In this document: positions 17,221 through 62,230 of the stretch, in pieces | Layout of the letters: each line of letters begins with the position of its first letter | Position numbering within the stretch: position 1 is the first letter of the stretch | NCBI GenBank assembly: GCA_965203095.1 | Contig: OZ241877.1 | Location: 1-64,000, forward strand | Reading direction: 5' to 3' | DNA: 64,000 nucleotides | Source: Bdellovibrionales bacterium | Lineage (GTDB): Bacteria; Bdellovibrionota; Bdellovibrionia; Bdellovibrionales; UBA1609 | Translations under genes and position numbers: made by a program | The notes under the pieces: generated by a model | The model's database searches: none | What the model was told of the DNA's origin: nothing | What the model saw: only the letters and a program-made list of their open reading frames with translations

Positions 17221-17701
17221 AGTGTTTTTCCCTCAGAAAACCAGAAACTCAAATAAAAAAGGCAACTATCCTCATACTTTTGCTTTTTATATTGATGAAA
17301 TCCAACAAATTCAAGCATTTTAATCCTCCTTGAAAAAGACGGCCCAAAAAATCTCTGGCTTTTTAGCTCCCGACAAAACAGTCATTCCTGTAAATGTTCA
17401 TTATTTCGCTGACAGAATCATTTTTTAGCCTTTTCACAAATAGCATTCATTTGAACAGGGGGGCTCTTCCCACAAAAATCCGTTAAAAAAACAGATTTTA
17501 GCTGTTTTTTGCCTGATCTTGCCATTTTTTTCTAAAATTTTTTAAACAAAAACCCGATAAGTAAGTATTTACTATGAAGAAAAATAGACCCTTGGAAAGC
17601 TTGCTAAAAAGCTCCCCAAGCTTTTTGGCTTCCTTGAAAACGGGAATCCAGAAATCCCAATCTTTTCCGCAAAAACTTATTGAAAAGCCTTATTCCTTAA
17701 C

Positions 17702-17774
17702 TTTTTGCCCAAAGGCCATTTCATTTCGGGACGGCAATACCTTGAACCCTCATGAAACGCCCTTTGGGCAAAAA
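17702..17774 (+). mobile_element. Core-hairpin repeat element copy (outer ends decayed)
   Basis: Core ttcgggacggcaataccttgaaccctc (17725-17751) inside stem tttgcccaaagg..cctttgggcaaa. Confidence 0.85.
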
Positions 17775-44007: not shown

Positions 44008-44520
44008 TTAGTTTGCCTAAAGACCACCCCATTTTCTTTCGTGGGAAAAATACCTTGGACCATCACCGGGGGGCTTTGGGCAAAATGAAGATTAAAGGAT
44101 ATTTTCTCCTGAGCTTGTTAAAAAACACCTCTTTAAGTTTCTTTTTCCAAAGGCCATTTCATTTCGGGACGGCAATACCTTGGACCCTCATGAAATGGCC
44201 TTTGGAAAAAAGAAGGAAAAAGCCATTATTCTTTAGTTTTTTTGCTCAAAGATCCCCCCATTATCTGCTCTATTTTGCGGGAAAATACCTTGGCCCCTCA
44301 TGGAACAAAGTCATTAAGAGGATGCTTTTTTAGATCGATTTATTGTCTGTGAAAAACTTCTGTCTTTTATCGCATAAGCAAAAGCCAGCGGTGAGGGTCC
44401 AAGGTATTGCCGTCCCGAACAAGCTGGACTTTTGCTTATGCGATCTATTAAATGTAGACTTTTTCACAGAGGATTTTTTAGCAATTAGTAGGCTGGCTTT
44501 TGGGCAAAAGTGATTAAAAT
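44008..44520. mobile_element. Cluster of four core-hairpin elements (two intact, two decayed cores)
   Basis: Intact cores 44163-44189 (+) and 44393-44419 (-); decayed cores at ~44038 and ~44274; TIR-bounded unit 44342-44474. Confidence 0.85.
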
Positions 44521-44601: not shown

Positions 44602-45948
44602 ATGAGAAAAAAGTTTTTTTTATGGACAAAATCCTTTTTTTTTAAAACTTTGCGGGCTGTGGCTGTTGGGGCTGTGGCTGTTGGGGCTGTGGATAATATA
44701 CCTATGCCAGCACCACCAAAAGCAATAGCAGTAGCAGAATCAACAGGGGCGACGGGGACATGTGATGAGATTCTTCCAGCTGAAGTGGAGGCGGCAAGCA
44801 AAGGTCTAATGGATATGGGGGCTATGGCTATGGTGGGGCAAACCGCCAACACTGCGGTATCCGCTACTGAAGATGGAGGAGGTTCTGCCAAATTGGCTCA
44901 CCAAGGCAGTATGGCTATCAATGGGACTATGTCGGCTTATGCCTTATCTGTTTATGACAGTTGCACTTCCGCTTTCACCGCTTGTGAAACAGCTTGTGCG
45001 GTGGGAGAAGAGAAAGACGCTGTTCTTAGTAATTGTCCTAAAGAGGGTGCAGAAATTTGTTCTAAATATGGACCTGGAGAGACTCCTCCTTCTGACCTTA
45101 GTGTTGATTGTTCAAAGGTAAAAGCAAATTGTGAAGACCATAAAACAAAGATTTTAGCTCAATGCACAAGTGCCGCTGGGGCTTGCGATCAGGCTTTAAT
45201 ACAAGCGGGTTTATCTCTTGCCAATGTGGGAATATCCCTTATGGCTTTAAGAGCACTGAGAGGAGATGATGATGGAGGAGATGAATGTGAAGAAGGCGAA
45301 GACTGTCCGGATGAGAATACAACTCCTCTTCCTGATTTTAGGTCTTCCAGCCTTCCAACAGCTACTACAAACTCTCCCAACACTTCACCGGGAGAAGATG
45401 AGAAAAAAACTAATCAAGAATTTACTCCACCGGAAAAACCAGAAGAGAAAAAAACCACTGTGGCGAAAAAGGAGAAAGGGGAAAAATACAAACCCACTAA
45501 AGAAGGGACAGGAAGTGACAACACAATGGGTTTGGCCTCTGCACTTGGTGGGCAAAAGTCCGCTACTCCCTCAAATTCTGCTGGGGGCTTAGGTTCCTCT
45601 GGTTTGGGCCGAGGGCTTAGTTCTGCCTCTAATAATGATGGCGAGCCTTTAATGGATGATGAAGATGATGAGGACTGGAGACGAAATAACCCAGGAATAA
45701 CAGGTGCTTTTTCCGGAGGTCTGACATCTCAGCCCGCCAATGTTAGAGGAGGGGCAGGGGGCTTAGGGGGGCCTTCTCAAAGAGGAAAGTCGGGCAAAAA
45801 AAATAAAAACAAAAAATGGGCCCAAGCCTCCAAAAAGAAAGGGGATATTTTTGCTAAAGCCGGAGCACATAGCAGTATTTTTGAAAAAATGAGCCAGATC
45901 ATTCAATCTTATTGTGGCAAAGAAAAGGGGAATTGTAGCCAAAAATAA
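44602..45948 (+). CDS. Cys-rich secreted/membrane hypothetical protein with Gly/Ser low-complexity tail
   Basis: CxxxC clusters, hydrophobic helix, C-terminal SIFEKMSQ motif. Confidence 0.7.
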   Translation: MRKKFFLWTKSFFFKTLRAVAVGAVAVGAVDNIPMPAPPKAIAVAESTGATGTCDEILPAEVEAASKGLMDMGAMAMVGQTANTAVSATEDGGGSAKLAHQGSMAINGTMSAYALSVYDSCTSAFTACETACAVGEEKDAVLSNCPKEGAEICSKYGPGETPPSDLSVDCSKVKANCEDHKTKILAQCTSAAGACDQALIQAGLSLANVGISLMALRALRGDDDGGDECEEGEDCPDENTTPLPDFRSSSLPTATTNSPNTSPGEDEKKTNQEFTPPEKPEEKKTTVAKKEKGEKYKPTKEGTGSDNTMGLASALGGQKSATPSNSAGGLGSSGLGRGLSSASNNDGEPLMDDEDDEDWRRNNPGITGAFSGGLTSQPANVRGGAGGLGGPSQRGKSGKKNKNKKWAQASKKKGDIFAKAGAHSSIFEKMSQIIQSYCGKEKGNCSQK

Positions 45949-46004
45949 AAGGATATGCTTTTTTTGGAAAAAAGGCATTTTTAATTAAAAAAAAGGAGGA
46001 CAAT

Positions 46005-47588
46005 ATGGGTAAAAAAACTTTTATTGGGATTTTTTTATTGAGCATGGTCTGTGCGGGATCCCCTTTATGGGCTTTGAGTCCTGATCTCGAAAGAGAAACA
46101 GCACATGCCACACGAATTGCTGAGGAAAGTATGGCAAGACTTAAAAGCGATTTGGACAATTGCCGGCACCGTTGCCAAAGCTCCTGCCGAAGAGATGATC
46201 CCAATGGAGATTGTTCACCAAAAAAATGTGATGAGATACAATGTAAAACTCAAAAAACCAACTATGACAATGCCTCTGGAAAAGGAGTGAGTGCTCAAAG
46301 TGCCACTATCGAGGATTCAAAAGCACAACAACAGGAAATCATCAACAGACATAATCAAACTCTTGAAGGGAGAAAAACCGCTTTAGAACAGTGCCGTTCT
46401 CGATGCAAATCCAACTGCCAACAAAGCAATGGGGACAATTGCACAGATGATTTTTGTGATAATGAACATTGTAGTGCTTTAAAACGAGAAGTTGATCATC
46501 AACAAGAACGGGTGAATACGGCCGAACAAGGTATGGCAGAACTGGACCGCACTGCAGGAGAATCTACAAATGGAGGCTCCTCCAGCCCCTTAGAGGAAGT
46601 TGGAAAAAAAGCCAGGGATATGGGCATTTATGCGGCCATTGGCGGGGCGGGAACAGCGGCATTTTCCGCCTGGGCCTATGTTGCTTGTGGATGTACCGGT
46701 GGTTGTTGGCAATGTCCTGTAGCTGTAGCCGCGGCCGCGGCCGCGGCCTGGCAAACAGTGAGTATGGTAAAAAAGGCAAAAGAATTAGGGGACATAGAAC
46801 AAACCCTGTGTGCAGAGGAAGAGGGATGCCCCCCGAAAGATCCCCCAGGGGTTCCCCAAGATCCCCATCTTTATCTTTGCGGATCTGCTCCTTGTCCGTC
46901 ACCAGAAGAACTGAAGGCACAATTCAGTTCTTCTGGTGGCTCTGGTAATGATCCAAATGAAAATGATCCTTCTGACATTAAAAAATTTACACCAAAAGAT
47001 GAGACGGATGCGTTTACAGGCAGTTCAACTTATAGAGATGTGACAGATGCATGGCCAGGAGGACTTCCGGGTTTTCCACAAGATCTGTTAGATCGTAAAA
47101 TTCCTCAAAATGAGGACGATTGGAAGAAGTTTCCTAAAAAATACAGACCCACTCCGGCAACTAAGAATAAAATGAAAAAAATGATGGCCCAGGTCAATAA
47201 AGACAACAAAGCCTTGTTAAATCAGCTGTCCACCGGGAATCCTTTTGATGAGGACGGGGAGTTGAAAGAATTAGGGGATATGGATGGAGCCAAAACAGCT
47301 CAATTTTCTGGAGGAAGTAGTTCTGCTGGCCCTTCTCGCCCTTTAGCCTCTACAGCCACTGGTGGGGCACAAAAAAAGAAAAAGAAAAACGCACTGGCGG
47401 AACAGATGAAAAAGATGCTCAATAAAATGTATGGAGAAGGAGGAAGTGGGAAAAAAGATCTTTCGGATAAATCCATTCAAGTGGGCACTGATATTGTGGG
47501 AGTGGCTGAGGACAATATTTTTATGATGGTCCATCGCCGGCACCGGAGCTTAGATGGTGAAAATCGCTTTATCAAGGAAATGTTTTAG
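46005..47588 (+). CDS. Cys-rich secreted hypothetical protein
   Basis: Signal peptide, duplicated CRxRCxSxC module, Ala-rich helices, C-terminal DNIFMMVHRR; RBS aggagg. Confidence 0.75.
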   Translation: MGKKTFIGIFLLSMVCAGSPLWALSPDLERETAHATRIAEESMARLKSDLDNCRHRCQSSCRRDDPNGDCSPKKCDEIQCKTQKTNYDNASGKGVSAQSATIEDSKAQQQEIINRHNQTLEGRKTALEQCRSRCKSNCQQSNGDNCTDDFCDNEHCSALKREVDHQQERVNTAEQGMAELDRTAGESTNGGSSSPLEEVGKKARDMGIYAAIGGAGTAAFSAWAYVACGCTGGCWQCPVAVAAAAAAAWQTVSMVKKAKELGDIEQTLCAEEEGCPPKDPPGVPQDPHLYLCGSAPCPSPEELKAQFSSSGGSGNDPNENDPSDIKKFTPKDETDAFTGSSTYRDVTDAWPGGLPGFPQDLLDRKIPQNEDDWKKFPKKYRPTPATKNKMKKMMAQVNKDNKALLNQLSTGNPFDEDGELKELGDMDGAKTAQFSGGSSSAGPSRPLASTATGGAQKKKKKNALAEQMKKMLNKMYGEGGSGKKDLSDKSIQVGTDIVGVAEDNIFMMVHRRHRSLDGENRFIKEMF

Positions 47589-49298: not shown

Positions 49299-49486
49299 GT
49301 TGTCCGTGAAAAAGCCTCAGTAAGTCCTTCTCATCCCCTGCTTTTACAGGCTCAGGCTTTTCAATGACTTTTGCCTAAAGGCCGTCCGGTGATGGTCCAA
49401 GGTATTGCCGTCCCGAAATGGGACGGACCTTTAGGCAAAGAAACTGAAGAATCCCCTGTGAATTATAGAGGTTTTTCACGAGCGAC
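49299..49486 (-). mobile_element. MITE-like core-hairpin element (188 bp)
   Basis: TIRs gttgtccgtgaaaaa / tttttcacgagcgac; exact 6-bp flanking duplication tattta; core 49391-49417. Confidence 0.93.
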
Positions 49487-49594: not shown

Positions 49595-51034
49595 TTGTCT
49601 CAAAAAATCACTGTGGCTTATGGCGATGGCATTGGGCCTGAAATTATGGCTGTGGTTTTAAATATTCTCCACCGGGCCGGGGCGGATTTAAAAATAGATC
49701 AGGTGGAATTAGGAGAAAAGATCTACAAACAAGGCTATATGTCCGGCATCCGTCCAGAGGATTGGGCCCTTATTCGGAAAAACAAAGTTTTCCTTAAAGC
49801 CCCCGTCACCACCCCACAGGGGGGTGGTTTTAAAAGCCTTAATGTCAAGGTGAGAAAAAGCCTGGGGCTTTTTGCCAATGTTCGCCCCATTCGCTCCCTT
49901 TCCCCTTATGTGGGAACAAAATTTCCCGATATGGATGTGGTGATCATTCGTGAAAATGAAGAGGATCTTTACGCAGGTATTGAGCACAGGCAGACCCAGG
50001 AGGTTTTTCAATGTTTAAAGCTGATAAGCCTTTCCGGTTCTGAAAGAGTGGCTCGCTATGCTTTTGAGTATGCCCGGCAAAATGGCCGGAAAAAAATAAC
50101 TTGTATGACCAAAGACAACATTATGAAACTCACTGACGGCTCTTTTCGAAAAGTTTTTGAAAAAGTGGCCAAAGAATATCCGGACATATTGAGCGAACAT
50201 TGGATTATAGATATTGGTTCGGCCAAATTTGCCGTTCAACCAGAAGATTTTGATGTGATTCTTCTGCCCAATCTTTATGGGGATATTTTGAGCGATGTCT
50301 CTGCTCAACTGGCAGGCTCTGTAGGTATGGGCGGGTCCAGTAATATTGGAGAAAGCCATGCTATGTTTGAGGCCATCCATGGTTCTGCTCCCCGGAGGGC
50401 GGGCCAAAACATAGCTAACCCCAGCGGGCTGTTAAATGCCTCTTTGATCCTGCTCTGTCATATTGGCAAAAAAGATATTGCAGAAAAGATACATAAAGCA
50501 TGGCTTAGGACTCTTGAGGAGGGGATCCACACTTATGATATTTATAACTCTCAAAACAGCCGTCAAAAGGTGAGCACAAGCGACTTTGGGAAGGCCCTAA
50601 TGGAAAATTTAGGGGCTGAGCCTAAAAATCTTTCTTCAAATTTTAAAAAAGGGGCGGGAGGGCCTATCTCCATCTCCCCTATCCCCTCACCTCCTATAGA
50701 GGAAAAGCATTTGGACGGGGTGGATGTTTTTGTTTGTGAGTCGAGCAGGGATCCTGAGGCTTTAGCCCTCCGGTTAAAAAAAGCCAATTCTCATTCGGAT
50801 ATGGATCTGGCACAAATCACTAATAGAGGGATTAAGGTTTATCCCAATCCTTTTCCTGAAACTTTTTGTGTGGATCACTGGCGTTGCCGTTTTTTAAAAA
50901 ACCCATCCACTGCTTTAAAAACAAAACATATTCTCTCTTTGTTGAGGGATTTGGATCTGGCTCAAATAGAAGTTATCAAAACAGAAAATCTTTATTCTTT
51001 TTCCGGAAAAGCTCAATACTCTCAAATTGAATAA
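49595..51034 (+). CDS. icd: Isocitrate dehydrogenase (long form with C-terminal extension)
   Basis: GDGIGPEI, LKAPVTTPQGGG, RENEEDLY, NLYGDILSD, FEAIHGSAP, ITNRG, DHWRCRF. Confidence 0.93.
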   Translation: MSQKITVAYGDGIGPEIMAVVLNILHRAGADLKIDQVELGEKIYKQGYMSGIRPEDWALIRKNKVFLKAPVTTPQGGGFKSLNVKVRKSLGLFANVRPIRSLSPYVGTKFPDMDVVIIRENEEDLYAGIEHRQTQEVFQCLKLISLSGSERVARYAFEYARQNGRKKITCMTKDNIMKLTDGSFRKVFEKVAKEYPDILSEHWIIDIGSAKFAVQPEDFDVILLPNLYGDILSDVSAQLAGSVGMGGSSNIGESHAMFEAIHGSAPRRAGQNIANPSGLLNASLILLCHIGKKDIAEKIHKAWLRTLEEGIHTYDIYNSQNSRQKVSTSDFGKALMENLGAEPKNLSSNFKKGAGGPISISPIPSPPIEEKHLDGVDVFVCESSRDPEALALRLKKANSHSDMDLAQITNRGIKVYPNPFPETFCVDHWRCRFLKNPSTALKTKHILSLLRDLDLAQIEVIKTENLYSFSGKAQYSQIE

Positions 51035-52861: not shown

Positions 52862-53290
52862 TTAATTCCCTTTTTTATTGATGATTTTAATGAGATGGAG
52901 TTGGTTCATCCCCTCTTTTCTCTCATAAGAAAGGCTATCCACACATTTTTTAGCAATTCTTATGCCCAGGCCCCCCAGTGGGCGATCTGCTATGCCAGCA
53001 TTTAAATTTTTTGGCTGGTATCCCAAAGGGTTAAAGGCGGGGCCAGCAGATGTTAAAAGGCAGTGGATTTTATCTCCCTTTATATTACAATCCACTTGAA
53101 TGCTTTTTGTCCCCCTTCTAAGGTTTTTCCCGGGACGACTGTATTTTATAATGTTGGTCACCAACTCTCCTAAAGCCAAATCCATTTCAGAGATGATTTT
53201 TTTGGGAATCTGTCTCTCCCGGCCCATTTCTTCTAAAAAAAAACTCAACTGCTCTAAAGCCCCTATTTGAAGTGGCAGTTGGATTTGCAT
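52862..53290 (-). CDS. RsbW-like anti-sigma factor / HATPase_c_2 kinase
   Basis: LALGELVTNIIKYS, GPAFNPL, RPLGGLGI, YER..GMN. Confidence 0.88.
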   Translation of the reverse strand: MQIQLPLQIGALEQLSFFLEEMGRERQIPKKIISEMDLALGELVTNIIKYSRPGKNLRRGTKSIQVDCNIKGDKIHCLLTSAGPAFNPLGYQPKNLNAGIADRPLGGLGIRIAKKCVDSLSYERKEGMNQLHLIKIINKKGN

Positions 53291-53457
53291 AACCCCCCCC
53301 TTCCCAACGGAAAAAATAGATCGTCCCCTCTGAAAAACTTGCCTAAAAGCCCGCATGTGTCAAGCCTTAAAAAAATCTTTAACAGGTTTTGCGAAATGGC
53401 TCAAAAATGATTCTGTCAAAAAAATCATGAACAGGACAGGAATAACTGTTTATGTGC

Positions 53458-53540
53458 TTTTGCCCAAAGCCACAGCATGAGGGTCCAAGGTATTGCCGTC
53501 CCGAAATGCTGTGGCCTTTGAGCAAAGAAACTAAAGAACA
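53458..53540 (-). mobile_element. Core-hairpin element between the RsbW-like and STAS genes
   Basis: Core 53479-53505 inside stem tttgcccaaagccacagcat / atgctgtggcctttgagcaaa. Confidence 0.88.
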
Positions 53541-53587
53541 ATTTTTTGCACTTGACAAAAACAATTTTTTTGAATGAAGTATAAATT

Positions 53588-53968
53588 ATGACTGAGGATT
53601 TAAAGCATTTCATGTCCCATAGCCAGGATCCCGAGGGCTATTTAATTGTTCAAATCAAAGATCGCTTTGATGAGAAAAACTATTCTCCCATTCAAGAAGA
53701 GATCGAGAATTTAATAAAAAATTCAAGCTCTCATCTCATTTTAGACCTCAACAATGTAAAAAGCATCCGGAGTGCGGGCTTGCGGGTGATTTTATCCCTG
53801 GCCAAGCTTTTCCAAAACACAAACAAAAATTTTGTCCTACTGTATTCTGAAAATGAGGAAAACAACCAAGTGGCACAAATACTGGAAGTCAGTGGCTTTA
53901 CAAAAATCATCCCTATCTTTTCCTCAAAAGAATCTGCTGTAAAGTATTGTAAAAAACCTACAGGATAA
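53588..53968 (+). CDS. STAS anti-anti-sigma factor
   Basis: LILDLNNVKSIRSAGLRVIL, ILEVSGF. Confidence 0.88.
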   Translation: MTEDLKHFMSHSQDPEGYLIVQIKDRFDEKNYSPIQEEIENLIKNSSSHLILDLNNVKSIRSAGLRVILSLAKLFQNTNKNFVLLYSENEENNQVAQILEVSGFTKIIPIFSSKESAVKYCKKPTG

Positions 53969-53978
53969 GGAGCGAGCT

Positions 53979-55031
53979 TTGGGCTTTTGTGAGTATATTT
54001 GGATAGACGGGGCCCAACCCACTCAAAAACTTCGCTCAAAGGCTCGATTCTTACATTTTAACAAAAATATGGAAAAAATTTCTTTAGAGGATTTCCCTCT
54101 ATGGGGTTTTGACGGTTCCTCCACATATCAGGCCAAGGGCCATAACTCCGATCTGATTTTAAAGCCAGTGAATTTTGTCCGGGACCCTTTGCGAGCGGGG
54201 GAAGGGCAGTTTTTAATCATCTGTGAGGTTTTAACCCCCTCTAACAAGCCCCATCCCACCAATACCAGAGCACGGTTGAGGCAGGTCCTCTCCCGCGGGG
54301 CAGATCGGGAAAAGCCCCTTTTTGGAGTGGAGCAGGAATACACCCTATTTAAAAACCGAACCCCTTTGGGCTGGCCGGACAAAGGCTACCCCGCCCCCCA
54401 AGGCCCTTTTTACTGCGGGGTAGGGGCGGATGAAGTTTTTGGAAGGGAGCTTGTGGAAAGGCATAGCCAGGCCTGTGTTCAAGCCAATATTATGATTTTT
54501 GGGATCAATGCGGAGGTCATGCCGGGCCAATGGGAATTCCAGATCGGTTATAGAGGGATTGAGGGGGAAAGTGCGGACCCTTTAAATGTAGGGGATCATA
54601 CATGGATAGCTCGCTGGCTTCTCTACCGGCTGGGGGAGGATTTGGGCATTACCGCCACCTTGGACCCTAAACCTGTCCGGGGGGACTGGAACGGTGCGGG
54701 CCAACACACTAACTTTTCTACAAAATCCCTTCGAAATCCTAAAACAGGGGCGGAAAGCATCAAAAAATATTTAGAAAGGCTTTCCAAAAAACACAAAGAG
54801 CATATTGCCGTCTATGGCCACAGGCTTTCAGAGCGACTGACAGGGCGACATGAGACCTGCCATATTGATGAGTTTCGCCATGGCGTGGCCGACCGAGGGG
54901 CCTCTATCCGAATCCCACTTCATGTCTCCAACAAAGGTTATGGCTATTTAGAAGACAGAAGGCCAGGGGCCAACGCCGATCCTTATGAAGTGGCGGAGAG
55001 GATCTTAAAAACCATCTGCGAAATTGAGTAA
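53979..55031 (+). CDS. Glutamine synthetase type II
   Basis: EYIWIDG, LRSK, WGFDGSST, PQGPFYCGVG, NAEVMPGQWEFQ, GDWNGAG, RLTGRHET, EDRRP; 350 aa. Confidence 0.95.
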   Translation: MGFCEYIWIDGAQPTQKLRSKARFLHFNKNMEKISLEDFPLWGFDGSSTYQAKGHNSDLILKPVNFVRDPLRAGEGQFLIICEVLTPSNKPHPTNTRARLRQVLSRGADREKPLFGVEQEYTLFKNRTPLGWPDKGYPAPQGPFYCGVGADEVFGRELVERHSQACVQANIMIFGINAEVMPGQWEFQIGYRGIEGESADPLNVGDHTWIARWLLYRLGEDLGITATLDPKPVRGDWNGAGQHTNFSTKSLRNPKTGAESIKKYLERLSKKHKEHIAVYGHRLSERLTGRHETCHIDEFRHGVADRGASIRIPLHVSNKGYGYLEDRRPGANADPYEVAERILKTICEIE

Positions 55032-55034
55032 AAC

Positions 55035-56471
55035 ATGAAAAACCCGGCCCAACTCTTCCAATCCTATAAAATAAAACCTCAGTTTTACGATGAGTTTTTT
55101 TCTTCTGAAAATAAAGCCCGCCCCTTAGCTCAAAACTTTATTCAAGAGTTTAATAACTTGCCTTTGCAGGACATTGAAAGGGCCCATTCATCCATCTCTC
55201 AGTTTTTTCAAACAGAGCTTTCCGCCTTTAATGTCCCAAAGGAAAGGGCCCTCTCTATGGACATCATCCCCTCCCTCCTCAATCAAAAAGATTGGGATCA
55301 TATAAAAAAAGGACTGAGTCAAAGGCTAAAGGCTCTAAACCTCTTTCTCAAAGACATTTATACTAAAGAACAAATTTTAAAAGAGGGCCTTGTGCCCAAA
55401 GATTTGGTTTATGAATCTCCACATTTTTTAAAAGAGATGAAGGGGGTCAAAATCCCCTTTGATATTTATATTCAAATATTGGGATCAAATATTGTTCGAA
55501 CTTCTGAAGGTTTTTTTGTGGGAGTGAGCCAGCCCAGCCCCCAAGGGAGTTTTTATTTAATACTGAGCCGGCGGGTGATGAAGCAAAAGTTCCCTCGCCT
55601 TTTCAGGAAGTGCAATGTTAAAAAAACCGATGGCTTAATTCCCTTTTTAAAATCCTTAAAATCACTTTCTGAAGAAGAAAAACCTTTTTCCGCCATTTTA
55701 AGCCCTGGCCCTTCCCACCCCCATTATTTTGAAATGAGTTGCCTCAGTAGACAAATGGGAATAGAGATGATCCAAAGTGCCGATCTAACCATCCACGAGG
55801 GAGGGCTTTATGTTAAAACCATTAAAAAGCTTAAAAAAATACATGTTGTATTTTGTCCCTTTGATATTTTTTACCCCCCTTTGGCCTTTCCGGATCATTT
55901 TGCCAAAGATATTCTTCAGCTTTTTTCCACTAACTATCCTGCAAGTATCACCCCAGTTCCTGGGGCCGGTGTGGCCTGTGACCGATCTATTTATAGCTAT
56001 ATCCCTAAAATCATACAGTATTATTTAAAAGAAGAAAGCCTTTTACCCAATATTCCCACTCAGCTTTGTCGCGAAAAAAAACATTTAGAACAAATTTTAC
56101 AAGATCTGCCAAAGTTAATTGTCAAACGCCTTACTGAATCAGAGAACTTTTTTATTGGGCCGAAATCCTCTAAAAAAGAGAGAGAGATTTTTAAGGAACA
56201 ACTTAAAGCCCATCCAAAAGATTTTATAGCCCAAACCCTTTTGCCTATTTCCACATCCCCTTGTTTTATTGATGGGGAAATAAAACCCCGGCATATATCT
56301 TTAAGAATGTTCACTTGGCTCAACCGTTTTTTTGAGGTGGGCACTGTTCCGGGGGGCTTTTGCCAAGCCTTTTCTGAGGAAGAAGATCTATTCTACCCCA
56401 CTCATTCTGCAGTGGCTTTAAAAGATCTGTGGCTTTTAAAAGAGGAGGATTATGCTTTCCCGCGTAGCTAA
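55035..56471 (+). CDS. Circularly permuted type 2 ATP-grasp homolog, catalytically degenerate
   Basis: FYDEF, GLSQRLKALNLFLKDIY, SPGP..YFE, GAGVACDRS, FIAQ..ISTSP, PRHISLR; lacks the EDN and GSGG motifs. Confidence 0.85.
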   Translation: MKNPAQLFQSYKIKPQFYDEFFSSENKARPLAQNFIQEFNNLPLQDIERAHSSISQFFQTELSAFNVPKERALSMDIIPSLLNQKDWDHIKKGLSQRLKALNLFLKDIYTKEQILKEGLVPKDLVYESPHFLKEMKGVKIPFDIYIQILGSNIVRTSEGFFVGVSQPSPQGSFYLILSRRVMKQKFPRLFRKCNVKKTDGLIPFLKSLKSLSEEEKPFSAILSPGPSHPHYFEMSCLSRQMGIEMIQSADLTIHEGGLYVKTIKKLKKIHVVFCPFDIFYPPLAFPDHFAKDILQLFSTNYPASITPVPGAGVACDRSIYSYIPKIIQYYLKEESLLPNIPTQLCREKKHLEQILQDLPKLIVKRLTESENFFIGPKSSKKEREIFKEQLKAHPKDFIAQTLLPISTSPCFIDGEIKPRHISLRMFTWLNRFFEVGTVPGGFCQAFSEEEDLFYPTHSAVALKDLWLLKEEDYAFPRS

Positions 56472-57456
56472 TAATTTTTACTGGATGGGGCGATATATAG
56501 AAAGGGCCTCTACCATAGCTCGGCTTTTGTTGGTTCAAATCAGTGAAATGCCGGAAGACTCTTCTGATTTTGTCTCCGCCAGCTGGAAAGGGATTTTTGA
56601 TAGCTTTAAATTATCGGATTTAAAGAAAAGTTTTTTGCCGGAACCAAAAGGTGAAAAATCAGTTTCAGATGATTTTTTGTTGGCAGACGCTTACACCCTG
56701 ACAGACTATTTTACTTTTGAAACTCATCACCCAGTATCCATCTATAGTTGCTTTAAATGGGCCAGGGAAAATGCCATTCAAAATCAAGATATAGCCAGAT
56801 CTATTGGCCTCTCCATTCATAAAACCTATTTGAAATTGGAAAAAACAAGCTTAAAAGAGCTTTGGCCGGACAAAATGGCGGATTTTTATAAAAACATTTT
56901 AGAGTTTAGCTGGCTCTTCCATGGCCTCATAAAAGATCGGCTCTACCAAGGCTTAGCCTTCCACTTCATCCACTTGGGCATTTACTTAGAGAGATTGCAA
57001 AATCAAGCCTCTATTTTTGAAAATCATATTCGCCTAATGATACAGCATAAAGAAGAAGAAGAGGATGTCATCAGCCTTCTCTTAAGGCTCTCTGCTTTAG
57101 AAAGCTATCGCCAGATTCACTCTTTAGATCTCACACTCCCTAAAGTGGCTGATTTTTTAATTTATGCCCAATTCCCGCACTCCTTAAAGTTTGCTGAAGA
57201 GCAAATAAGAAAATCCCTTTCCTCCATTGAGGGAATAGAAGATCCCAATGCCCTACCCTTTCCCTCCTTAAACAAAATAGAGAGCCAGCTGAGAGCCTCT
57301 TATGTGGGACAAGCCTTGCCTAAATTTTTAAATTCTTTTTATAAAAATGCAATAGCTGTAGGAGAGTCCATTAGCAAAATTTATTTTCATCAAGAAAAGA
57401 TAGGGGAAGGGCCACAAGAACAGTTCCCTCATCTTTTTTCGAAAAAAAAGAAATAA
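56452..57456 (+). CDS. Alpha-E domain protein (DUF403)
   Basis: MLSRVA..YWMGRYIERA, ARENA, LGIYLER, FPHSL. Confidence 0.9.
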   Translation: MLSRVANNFYWMGRYIERASTIARLLLVQISEMPEDSSDFVSASWKGIFDSFKLSDLKKSFLPEPKGEKSVSDDFLLADAYTLTDYFTFETHHPVSIYSCFKWARENAIQNQDIARSIGLSIHKTYLKLEKTSLKELWPDKMADFYKNILEFSWLFHGLIKDRLYQGLAFHFIHLGIYLERLQNQASIFENHIRLMIQHKEEEEDVISLLLRLSALESYRQIHSLDLTLPKVADFLIYAQFPHSLKFAEEQIRKSLSSIEGIEDPNALPFPSLNKIESQLRASYVGQALPKFLNSFYKNAIAVGESISKIYFHQEKIGEGPQEQFPHLFSKKKK

Positions 57457-57474
57457 TGCCCCATTAAAAAAGCT

Positions 57475-59181
57475 TTATCGAATTTTAGGGAACAAAGGGA
57501 TAGAAGGGCATTTTATAGCCCAATCAAAGGGGAAACTGCCCCAAGCGGTATGTTTAAGGCTCAGCTTTTGCCCATCATAGTTTAGCTTAGTGGTAGGGTT
57601 TAGAGCGGGATTTATCTCCGGCAAGGAGGGGACCATTCCCAACTGAGATAAAAGCTCTGTCATTTTCCCCGGCATAATCGGGAAAAGAAATAGAGCACAA
57701 ATCCTTAAAGCCTCTATAACAGTCCAAAGAACTTGTCCGGCTCGCTTTTTCCCGCTTTGTGATTTTAATAACTTCCAAGGGGCCTCTCGCTCTAAATACC
57801 TGTTAAGCTCTGTCAAAAGGCCAAACAGATCCTCTAAGGCTTGAGAAAGCTCAAATTTCTCTATCCGCTCTTTCCAGCCTGCTTTTGTTTTTAAATTCCC
57901 AAAAAAAAGCTCTTCCGTCATCTGTTTGATCTTTTGATCTGCTATCTCATCCCTTGGGACTTTCCCCTCAAAATGCTTTTCTATCAAACGGGAGACTCGG
58001 CTAAAAATATTGCCTAAATTGTCCGACAGATCCTCATTGCATTTTTGGATCATTAATTCTTTAGAAATAGCTGAATCTTTTCCTAAAAAAATGTTCTTAG
58101 CTAAAAAATACCTCAAGCCATCCACCCCTAAAATATCCGATAACTCCAAAGGATCCAGTTTATCCCCTTGAGATTTGCTCATCTTTTTATCCGATCGGTT
58201 CAAAAGCCAGCCATGGGCAAAAATACTTTTGGGCAATTTTAAATCCAAAGCCATCAAAAGGCAGGGCCAATACACCGCATGAGTCATTAAAATATCTTTG
58301 CCAATAAGATGAATGGCTCCAGCTCTATTCCAAAAATTTTCAAAATAAGTTTTATCTTCCTCCTTACCAATATAATCCTCCTTTACAAGGTAGGCCCCAT
58401 AACCCAAACCGGTAATATAATTGAGAAGGGCATCCACCCAAACATAAACTACAGAGCTTTTATCAAAACTCAGCTCTATCCCCCACTGGACTCTTGACTT
58501 GGGGCGACTCACACAAAGATCTTTCAGAGGCTTTTTTAAAAAGGCTTTAATTTCATTTTGCCTCTCTATTGGCCGGATAAATTGGGGATGAGTTTCTAAA
58601 TGACGAATCAAAAGATCTTGATATTTTGACATTTTAAAAAACCAAGCCTTTTCCTGTAGGGGGATAACCTCTTTTCCCGATGGGGATTTTCCATCTATTA
58701 AATCTTTTTCGGTATAAAAAATCTCTTCGCTCACACAATACCAGCCCTTGTATTGGCTTAAATAAATGTCTCCCTTATCTTTTATTTTTTGAAGAAGGCT
58801 TTGAACCGTTTGACTGTGATTAGGAGGAGTGCCCCCCTCTTTTAGTTGTTGATATTTATGACTTGTGTAAAAAAAAGATTGATCCTCCTCACCAATGGCA
58901 TTGTATTCAATGTTCAGTTTTTGCCAAACGGTTTTAAAATGCTCTCTCATCTCTGCACAGTGGAGTTCCGGCTCTACGCCTCTGGCCTTTGCGGCCTGCT
59001 CGCATTTTTGCCCATGCTCGTCCGTTCCCGTTAAAAAAAAAGTCTCATAATCTAAAAGTTTGTGATAGCGGTTCAAAATATCAGCAATAATTGTGCTGTA
59101 AGCTGTCCCTAAGTGAGGCCGATCGTTTACATAATAAAGAGGGGTGCTGATATAAAAAAAATGGGAACAGCTCATCCGCAT
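57475..59181 (-). CDS. metG: Methionine--tRNA ligase
   Basis: TPLYYVN..HLG, LTGTDEHGQK, YVWVDAL, IGKDI, KMSKS. Confidence 0.95.
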   Translation of the reverse strand: MRMSCSHFFYISTPLYYVNDRPHLGTAYSTIIADILNRYHKLLDYETFFLTGTDEHGQKCEQAAKARGVEPELHCAEMREHFKTVWQKLNIEYNAIGEEDQSFFYTSHKYQQLKEGGTPPNHSQTVQSLLQKIKDKGDIYLSQYKGWYCVSEEIFYTEKDLIDGKSPSGKEVIPLQEKAWFFKMSKYQDLLIRHLETHPQFIRPIERQNEIKAFLKKPLKDLCVSRPKSRVQWGIELSFDKSSVVYVWVDALLNYITGLGYGAYLVKEDYIGKEEDKTYFENFWNRAGAIHLIGKDILMTHAVYWPCLLMALDLKLPKSIFAHGWLLNRSDKKMSKSQGDKLDPLELSDILGVDGLRYFLAKNIFLGKDSAISKELMIQKCNEDLSDNLGNIFSRVSRLIEKHFEGKVPRDEIADQKIKQMTEELFFGNLKTKAGWKERIEKFELSQALEDLFGLLTELNRYLEREAPWKLLKSQSGKKRAGQVLWTVIEALRICALFLFPIMPGKMTELLSQLGMVPSLPEINPALNPTTKLNYDGQKLSLKHTAWGSFPFDWAIKCPSIPLFPKIR

Positions 59182-61853: not shown

Positions 61854-62041
61854 GTCGTCCGTGAAAAAGCCTCAGTAAGTCCCTCTCATCCCCTGCTTTT
61901 ACAGGCTCAGACTTTTCAATCACTTTTGCCTAAAGGCCGTCCCATGAGGGTCCAAGGTATTGCCGTCCCGAAATGGGACGGACCTTTAGGCAAAGAAACT
62001 GAAGAATCCCCTGTGAATTATAGAGCTTTTTCACGGGCGAT
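61854..62041 (-). mobile_element. MITE-like core-hairpin element (188 bp, near-identical to 49299-49486)
   Basis: TIRs gtcgtccgtgaaaaa / tttttcacgggcgat; flanks taatta / taattt; core 61946-61972. Confidence 0.93.
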
Positions 62042-62080: not shown

Positions 62081-62230
62081 GTGACTCATGAAAAAGTATC
62101 CTCTCAACTTCTTTTTTCCAAAGGCCATTTCATTCATGAGGGTCCAAGGTATTGCCGTCCCGAAATGGGATGGCCTTTGGAAAAAGAAACTAAAGAATAA
62201 GGCTTTCCAGAAGGATTTTTCACAAAAGAT
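62081..62230 (-). mobile_element. Second adjacent core-hairpin element
   Basis: Core 62138-62164 in stem ttttccaaaggccat / atggcctttggaaaa; decayed TIRs. Confidence 0.85.

Follow-up and report, generated by a model that had tools for sequence, protein, structure and literature searches.

The operon that joins genes for a CP-ATP-grasp protein, an alpha-E protein and a transglutaminase, with or without the proteasome-like peptidase Anbu, goes back to Iyer et al. (2009), as related in the accessible parts of three later papers (PMC6376114, PMC5666114, PMC3495828); operons of this family are reported there to be induced by nitrogen starvation (PMC6376114, PMC5666114) and to be widespread, with no confirmed function (PMC6376114). 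In the accessible part of its source, the Rsb partner switch of Chlamydia trachomatis is described as having an RsbU that senses alpha-ketoglutarate and the housekeeping sigma factor as target (PMC11619594). Genes of both kinds lie side by side in the window analysed here, a stretch of 64,000 nucleotides (positions 1 to 64,000 of contig OZ241877.1, forward strand) from a Bdellovibrionales bacterium (assembly GCA_965203095.1, hereafter G000), in which the gene for an RsbW-like kinase diverges from a cluster encoding a stand-alone STAS protein, a glutamine synthetase II (GSII), a CP-ATP-grasp protein (P0001) and an alpha-E protein. An initial annotation, made from the letters alone, had proposed for these genes a nitrogen-control module with a dead ATP-grasp as sensor or scaffold for glutamine synthetase (GS). 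We found that the conserved unit is the STAS/RsbW switch, linked in several genera to nitrogen genes, and our comparisons support the view that P0001 is a catalytically degenerate ligase, a state seen in this lineage only.

Layout and ancestry of the five-gene locus

The five-gene layout and the degenerate ligase within it are real. On the minus strand lies the gene for the RsbW-like anti-sigma factor/serine kinase (52862-53290; HATPase_c_2 in Pfam), whose identity was as first annotated, with its start now shifted to a probable 53290, where homologues align (the longest open reading frame would start at 53356). The plus strand carries the stand-alone STAS gene of the anti-sigma-factor-antagonist type (53588-53968; STAS in Pfam), GSII (53979-55031; Gln-synt_N/C in Pfam, GlnII being the best family), the CP-ATP-grasp type 2 pseudo-ligase of 478 amino acids (55035-56471; CP_ATPgrasp_2) and alpha-E (56452-57456; Alpha-E in Pfam), separated by gaps of 10 and 3 nucleotides and, between the last two, an overlap of 20. 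The gene order, the spacings and the divergent kinase were all re-found as the initial annotation had given them, and its family assignments hold by Pfam. The 478-codon frame is likewise open: short-read contigs from one sample (X1, possibly the source sample) showed 0 differences over 54494-57500, and those from a second sample (X4) showed 0 differences over the parts that they cover (54492-55181 and 56074-56474). An assembly or frameshift artefact was rejected, since the changes in the EDN motif are in-frame substitutions and the short-read contigs are identical. Two sponge metagenomes from a single study contain contigs 92-99% alike. A promoter and terminator scan did no better than chance (6 against 8.8 and 8 against 8.3), and an Rfam scan gave no credible match.

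GSII is the sole GS match in G000, which belongs to a small-genome genus and whose assembly is 90% complete. It scores 455 bits against a GlnII cut-off of 500 and has the invariant columns common to 14 aligned GSII proteins, and we counted it as a family member; GSII occurs in 10/10 genomes of the genus, in varying neighbourhoods. Downstream of alpha-E, a methionyl-tRNA synthetase gene converges at 57475, the position held in relatives by a transglutaminase gene. The initial annotation had remarked that no transglutaminase is adjacent, and none was found at the locus or elsewhere in the 90%-complete genome, with no PF01841 match and no tblastn match at E<0.1 for the proteins of three relatives; between alpha-E and the synthetase gene there is no candidate reading frame for an Anbu or proteasome-like peptidase, for which no genome-wide search was made.

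Only 4/109 genomes of the taxonomic family carry this ATP-grasp type, 14 others having weak partial matches only. The other three all have an intact ligase and a transglutaminase gene. G007 has RsbW beside STAS-GSII-ATP-grasp-alpha-E-transglutaminase; in G008, RsbW and STAS are followed by a sensor-PP2C and then by the ATP-grasp-alpha-E-transglutaminase operon, with GS elsewhere; and in G097 the ATP-grasp/alpha-E/transglutaminase operon converges on STAS-PP2C-RsbW. STAS and ATP-grasp co-occur in the same 3/10 genomes of the genus, and each of four further metagenomic STAS orthologues has a longest contig of the same length as that of an intact ATP-grasp, an indirect sign of co-location. At 80 distant ATP-grasp loci, with flanks of variable length, alpha-E was present in 74, transglutaminase in 63, RsbW/PP2C-like matches in 1 and GS in 0. 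The lineage of G000 would have started from an operon ordered as in G007 and have lost its transglutaminase gene as well as the active site of the ligase.

The ATP-grasp protein and its alpha-E neighbour

P0001 is a CP-ATP-grasp protein of type 2 (PF14403; 308 bits against a curated cut-off of 32). Its predicted structure has a mean predicted local distance difference test score of 81.6, low at 278-300 and 456-458, and resembles 3N6X most closely (template-modelling score 0.81); being built on intact homologues, the model cannot demonstrate that P0001 folds. The degenerate segments that the initial annotation had quoted are present (GVSQPSPQG at 163-171, KRLTESENF at 364-372), and the family's RRIDD, DDK, HVDLRP and NSSQGGG segments are gone as well. 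Scored over D..R, EDNxR, RR, DDK, the Gly loop, DLR and NSSQG, with conservation measured, P0001 keeps 6/22 catalytic-motif sites (R155, K364, Q400, R424, K463 and D464), whereas 21-22 are kept by each of its 119 nearest relatives (119/119), made up of the 20 close ones and the 99 that follow. We presume metal- and ATP-binding roles for these residues from glutathione-synthetase-like enzymes, the fold class that P0001 matches. By its motifs P0001 falls outside the active CP-ATP-grasp ligases, and over family-wide conserved columns it keeps 73/138, against 134-138 in 18 full-length close relatives.

This state is confined to one lineage. The 20 close relatives stand at 43-46% identity, after which identity drops to about 36%. 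P0001 appears to derive from a clade of intact stand-alone ATP-grasps, although its placement in the tree is unsure because its terminal branch is very long (1.76 against a median of 0.18). It had no sister among 1.84 billion 50%-cluster representatives and sits alone in its own 50% cluster; a metagenome locus scan returned distant relatives alone (31-37% identity) and a scan of genome contigs G007 alone. No conserved clade of dead ligases was found, all 20 close relatives being intact. The idea of the dead ATP-grasp as a conserved part of the module is not supported, and the linkage is unique to G000 as far as the dead ligase goes but not for the tie between the switch and nitrogen genes.

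The ATP-grasp gene of G000 is probably still under selection, and slow decay, in which ATP-grasp, alpha-E and RsbW erode in a reduced genome after loss of the transglutaminase while the frame stays open only through translational coupling or polarity in the GS operon, is an unlikely account, if one that deserves some weight. When the G007 gene was mutated without constraint to 0.53-0.65 identity in simulation, 10-14 stops arose and 0/200 frames stayed open at each setting. The losses in P0001 are targeted to motifs (16/51 motif sites kept against 128/198 elsewhere, p=2.7e-5, with a motif list compiled after the alignment had been inspected) and clustered (99 runs against about 120-125 in open-frame simulations), which argues against decay, as does the N-terminal region: residues 1-150, among the best conserved parts of the protein, keep 51/69 conserved sites against 96/184 in the remainder (p=0.0025). 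In the ATP-grasp gene, synonymous sites are saturated between species (four-fold identity 0.33-0.46), too far for a ratio of non-synonymous to synonymous substitution rates (omega) between them. Among close strains, ATP-grasp differs at 51/1086 positions (4.7%) and GS at 23/580 (4.0%), as counted over the 12 contig pieces listed, each within one gene, at a depth of 2-5 and with codon positions not visible (249 more were unlisted; pieces that span genes (two), have 83% identity (one) or lie on the hairpin repeat (one) were left out). These counts give an ATP-grasp omega of about 0.1-0.3 if that of GS is <=0.15, and a divergence of about one third to one half of neutral expectation at a reference omega up to 0.15, again unlike decay. 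Indels in the ATP-grasp gene among the pieces listed are in frame only (3 nucleotides).

Several observations weigh the other way. The strain test is indirect, and non-significant if the reference omega is 0.3. Substitutions are no more than marginally conservative, with 1-7% of simulations attaining the observed score. Hydrophobic-core retention (0.87) equals that of neutral open-frame simulations (0.81-0.85, with 10-38% of simulations reaching 0.87), new prolines slightly exceed expectation (8 against about 4), and retention is alike across conservation classes (0.53, 0.58, 0.53). As expected if the whole module were decaying, alpha-E is eroding and RsbW has lost the Asp of its G1 box, which is Ser in G000, Asn in G107 and still Asp in 11/13 of the genomes that have this kinase; the N-box E/N and the GGLG box of the G000 kinase are kept. 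Moreover, 7/10 genomes of the genus have neither ATP-grasp nor this STAS, and G100 and G107, of a second genus, resemble later stages of decay, with no PF14403 match and an orphan alpha-E that lacks both ER pairs (L155 9590-10537 in G100, L154 9536-10510 in G107) and forms long branches in a quick tree.

The alpha-E protein of G000 (PF04168, 164 bits) falls in its family and keeps both ER motifs (E17-R18 and E180-R181), as first annotated; that picture needs correcting in so far as the protein is partly eroded elsewhere, with 85/100 clade-conserved sites kept against 91-100 in 18 relatives and R109, W119, N123, E168 and G208 lost. A likely clue to its relation with P0001 came from long ATP-grasp homologues (>620 amino acids; 110 representatives, 107 scorable), which keep a median of 12/22 sites, the EDN Glu being kept in 15 and the EDN Asn in 11. 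Nine of ten that were checked are ATP-grasp/alpha-E fusions, the tenth being an ATP-grasp/transglutaminase fusion, so a degenerate ATP-grasp joined to alpha-E is a common architecture. Most of these fusions (about 850 amino acids, PF14403+PF04168) lack, as P0001 does, the EDN E and N, the DDK lysine, the Gly loop and NSSQ, and they keep the six sites that P0001 keeps; all six fall within the 12 sites kept by long homologues (P=0.012). P0001 differs from them in being unfused, in descending from the clade of intact stand-alone proteins and in lacking six more sites that are present in the fusions. It appears from these alignments to have converged on the architecture of the fusions, and on its predicted features the dead ligase is a pseudoenzyme restricted to this lineage, of a kind for which its family offers precedent. 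In the literature searched, no paper was found that puts the supposed inactivity of the fusions to the test.

This resemblance favours alpha-E over GS as the partner, and P0001 would more likely be a structural partner of alpha-E than of GS. That the dead ATP-grasp instead binds GSII as a scaffold or metabolite sensor and passes the phosphorylation state of STAS on to it, along the lines of the initial annotation, we regard as quite improbable. The gene lies 3 nucleotides past the sole GS gene in a genome without PII, and K364, Q400, R424 and K463, which we take from glutathione-synthetase-like ligases to be ligand-holding residues, could still hold a ligand. Yet GS adjoins ATP-grasp in only 2/4 of the family genomes with this ATP-grasp type (G000 and G007), and the adjacency predates inactivation, the G007 ligase being intact and followed by a transglutaminase. 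GS was also absent from all distant loci within the fetched flanks, it moves freely within the genus, and the switch-GS loci of other genera have no ATP-grasp.

The switch, PII and nitrogen genes across Bdellovibrionota

Stand-alone RsbW, called at E<1e-14, was present in 13/109 family genomes; G061, with a 558-codon fusion at 7e-14 and with PII, was left out. PII was found in 0/13 of these genomes, against 63/109 in the family and 13/14 control genomes. The anti-correlation (Fisher 4e-6) is overstated, as related genomes are not independent data points and 33 of the family have neither PII nor the switch. In genus g45, three genomes with PII lie outside the 13 and two without it are among them. 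PP2C occurs in 12/109 genomes, all within the 13. In 12/13, a switch gene lies beside GS, Amt, glutaminase or ATP-grasp/alpha-E genes. It is next to GS and/or the ammonium channel gene amt in 8/13 (G000 and G007 as above; STAS-Amt-GSII in G015; Amt-GSII-STAS in G044; GSII-STAS-RsbW-PP2C in G048; GSII-STAS-Amt-RsbW-PP2C in G049; and Amt-RsbW-STAS-PP2C-glutaminase-GSIII in G089 and G090) and next to an intact ATP-grasp operon in 2/13 (G008, G097), while in 2/13 (G100, G107) the ER-less alpha-E heads, directly upstream, an operon for a receiver-PP2C, a binding protein and a sensor kinase. In a phylum sample of 401 genomes there were five switch matches outside the family, of which 4/5 were examined: G271 and G282, outside the order, have RsbW beside STAS-Amt-GSII and no PII, and the two others are G027 and G354.

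The switch-linked Amt proteins (L191 5379-6770 and orthologues) match the 'marine subtype' TIGR03644 best, at 470 bits and below the 514 cut-off, and form a score group apart from other Amt proteins of the family. The glutaminase beside GSIII in G089 and G090 (L195 3033-4592, L208 3779-5338) carries EF-hand-like and ankyrin parts.

Ser62 of STAS, the presumed phospho-acceptor, is invariant in 12/12 aligned module STAS proteins, and a SpoIIE-type receiver-PP2C is encoded elsewhere in G000, so that both the Ser and the phosphatase of canonical partner switches are there. Its gene lies about 43 kilobases beyond the locus, with those for a Peripla_BP_6 binding protein and a HAMP/HisKA kinase (weak TorS-like sensor match), in the same operon as in G100 and G107 (C1:99727-104160, L210); this operon is likely the input arm of the switch. 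Three sigma-70 matches occur in G000 (a 601-codon protein that is presumably RpoD, judged by its size, a FliA/WhiG type and an RpoH-like type), plus sigma-54. As no SigB/SigF type was found in the genome, the target may be the housekeeping sigma factor, as in Chlamydia, or may lie in the nitrogen enzymes. G000 also encodes, at C1:1083418-1083774, another stand-alone STAS, which is divergent. The large membrane PP2C phosphatases of other genomes (L013 10459-13137, L142 10601-13291, L191, L195, L206, L208, L227) have in common a periplasmic region at the N-terminus for which Pfam gives no confident match (a weak dCache_1 match in one), a candidate new nitrogen-sensing domain.

We give an even chance to the reading that a nitrogen-linked partner switch stands in for PII in these PII-less, mostly small-genome Bdellovibrionota, with the pseudo-ligase kept as a non-catalytic partner, most likely of alpha-E. 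In G000, the binding protein and sensor kinase would act through the receiver-PP2C, a membrane sensor-PP2C taking over their combined role in other genomes; phosphatase and RsbW would together set the phosphorylation of Ser62, by analogy with canonical systems as described in the accessible part of PMC8256260. The state of STAS and RsbW may in turn tune GS, Amt, glutaminase and the nitrogen-starvation ATP-grasp/alpha-E/transglutaminase operon, most likely at the level of transcription, through a sigma factor, not of the SigB/SigF type, that RsbW would hold. The 33 genomes without PII or switch count against this reading, indicating that PII loss does not require a switch, as do G011, the thirteenth genome, with no nitrogen gene nearby and a PP2C fragment only, G027, which has PII as well as the switch and lacks a nitrogen gene beside it, and G354, whose switch likewise has none beside it; the lack of a SigB/SigF-type factor and the lost G1 Asp noted above tell against it too.

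A bolder version, in which STAS/RsbW/PP2C is a true PII replacement that reads the extracellular amino-acid supply by way of a binding protein and sensor, GS and the ammonium channel are direct targets of a STAS controlled by phosphorylation, and the ATP-grasp/alpha-E pair is repeatedly stripped of catalysis and kept as an adaptor of the switch, seems unlikely to us; the dead ATP-grasp of G000 and the ER-less alpha-E of G100 and G107 would be the instances of such stripping. Rather improbable is a switch that has no control over nitrogen genes, being instead carried on a transferred island or itself regulated by nitrogen as a passenger, and that governs, for example, the FliA regulon or the growth/predation cycle. 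FliA/WhiG-type, RpoH-like and sigma-54 factors are available in G000, partner switches act on varied sigma factors according to the accessible parts of PMC11619594 and PMC13712970, and G027, G354 and G011 would fit. Against this, the linkage survives many rearrangements and involves non-homologous nitrogen genes (GSII, GSIII, Amt, glutaminase and the ATP-grasp operon). Furthermore, STAS lies directly beside amt or GS, the place usual for glnK; G000 and its genus yielded no Amt (0/10), which leaves G000 itself outside the STAS-amt arrangement. Of the pseudo-ligase in a nitrogen-control module, as initially annotated, the degeneracy, the probable selection and the tie of the switch to nitrogen genes across genera hold up; its place as a conserved part and as a specific GS sensor is not supported.

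Elsewhere in the window, a dispersed hairpin repeat of about 85 nucleotides, whose loop is conserved and whose stems vary yet can still pair (folding z=-4.3), has about 120 blastn matches in G000 and no Rfam match. One copy (53455-53538, no strand assigned; blastn) lies in the divergent intergenic region between RsbW and STAS and is unrelated to the module; further copies lie near 17690-17773, 44130-44210, 49390-49451, 61923-62006 and 62135-62200. In G007, short tandem repeats of no relation to this hairpin take up both gaps flanking STAS (L012 7000-7605 and 7986-8592). An alphaproteobacterial-type isocitrate dehydrogenase dependent on nicotinamide adenine dinucleotide phosphate (49595-51034; TIGR02924, above cut-off), a source of 2-oxoglutarate, lies about 1.8 kilobases from RsbW, probably by coincidence. 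Positions 44602-47588 encode a tandem pair of secreted-looking Cys/Gly-rich proteins (448 and 527 amino acids), with a similar-looking pair in G009 (L031 14677-17753).

Comparison with described systems

PII is a near-universal nitrogen sensor. That a partner switch accompanies GS, Amt and glutaminase genes specifically where PII is missing points towards another logic of nitrogen control. The series from an intact ligase (G007, G008, G097) through a dead one (G000) to an ER-less alpha-E alone (G100, G107) suggests that the ATP-grasp/alpha-E pair has a non-catalytic role that outlasts ligase activity. The recurrence of the switch beside nitrogen genes, with a dead ligase that seems to be kept in one lineage, hints at an unstudied control of nitrogen use in small Bdellovibrio-like bacteria without PII. 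In the literature searched, whose coverage left out most subscription papers and supplements, no partner switch linked to GS, Amt or GlnK is described and no paper on a dead CP-ATP-grasp was found. A preprint on M. tuberculosis (10.64898/2026.04.15.718621), in which two proteins that we take to be family members made no GABA (gamma-aminobutyric acid)-trehalose, is not informative here.

With the operon of Iyer et al., G007, G008 and G097 share families and gene order; the fold match to 3N6X and the transglutaminase at most distant loci belong to the same picture. G000 departs from it in three ways: a search for the transglutaminase found none, the active site of the ligase has been lost, and the pair has STAS/RsbW and GS linked to it. 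The RsbU/RsbV/RsbW-SigB switch of Bacillus, as far as the accessible part of PMC8256260 describes it, has in common with ours a STAS protein with a conserved Ser, a HATPase_c_2 kinase and a SpoIIE-type phosphatase; the switch here differs in its linkage to nitrogen assimilation, in the absence of a SigB/SigF type from G000 and in its input, a binding protein with a sensor kinase or a sensor-PP2C. Whereas the accessible parts of the papers on Chlamydia Rsb (PMC11619594) and Anabaena NfsS/NfsR (PMC13712970) contain no description of GS/Amt linkage or PII substitution such as that seen here, both systems likewise tie a partner switch to a metabolite signal (Chlamydia) or to nitrogen starvation (Anabaena).

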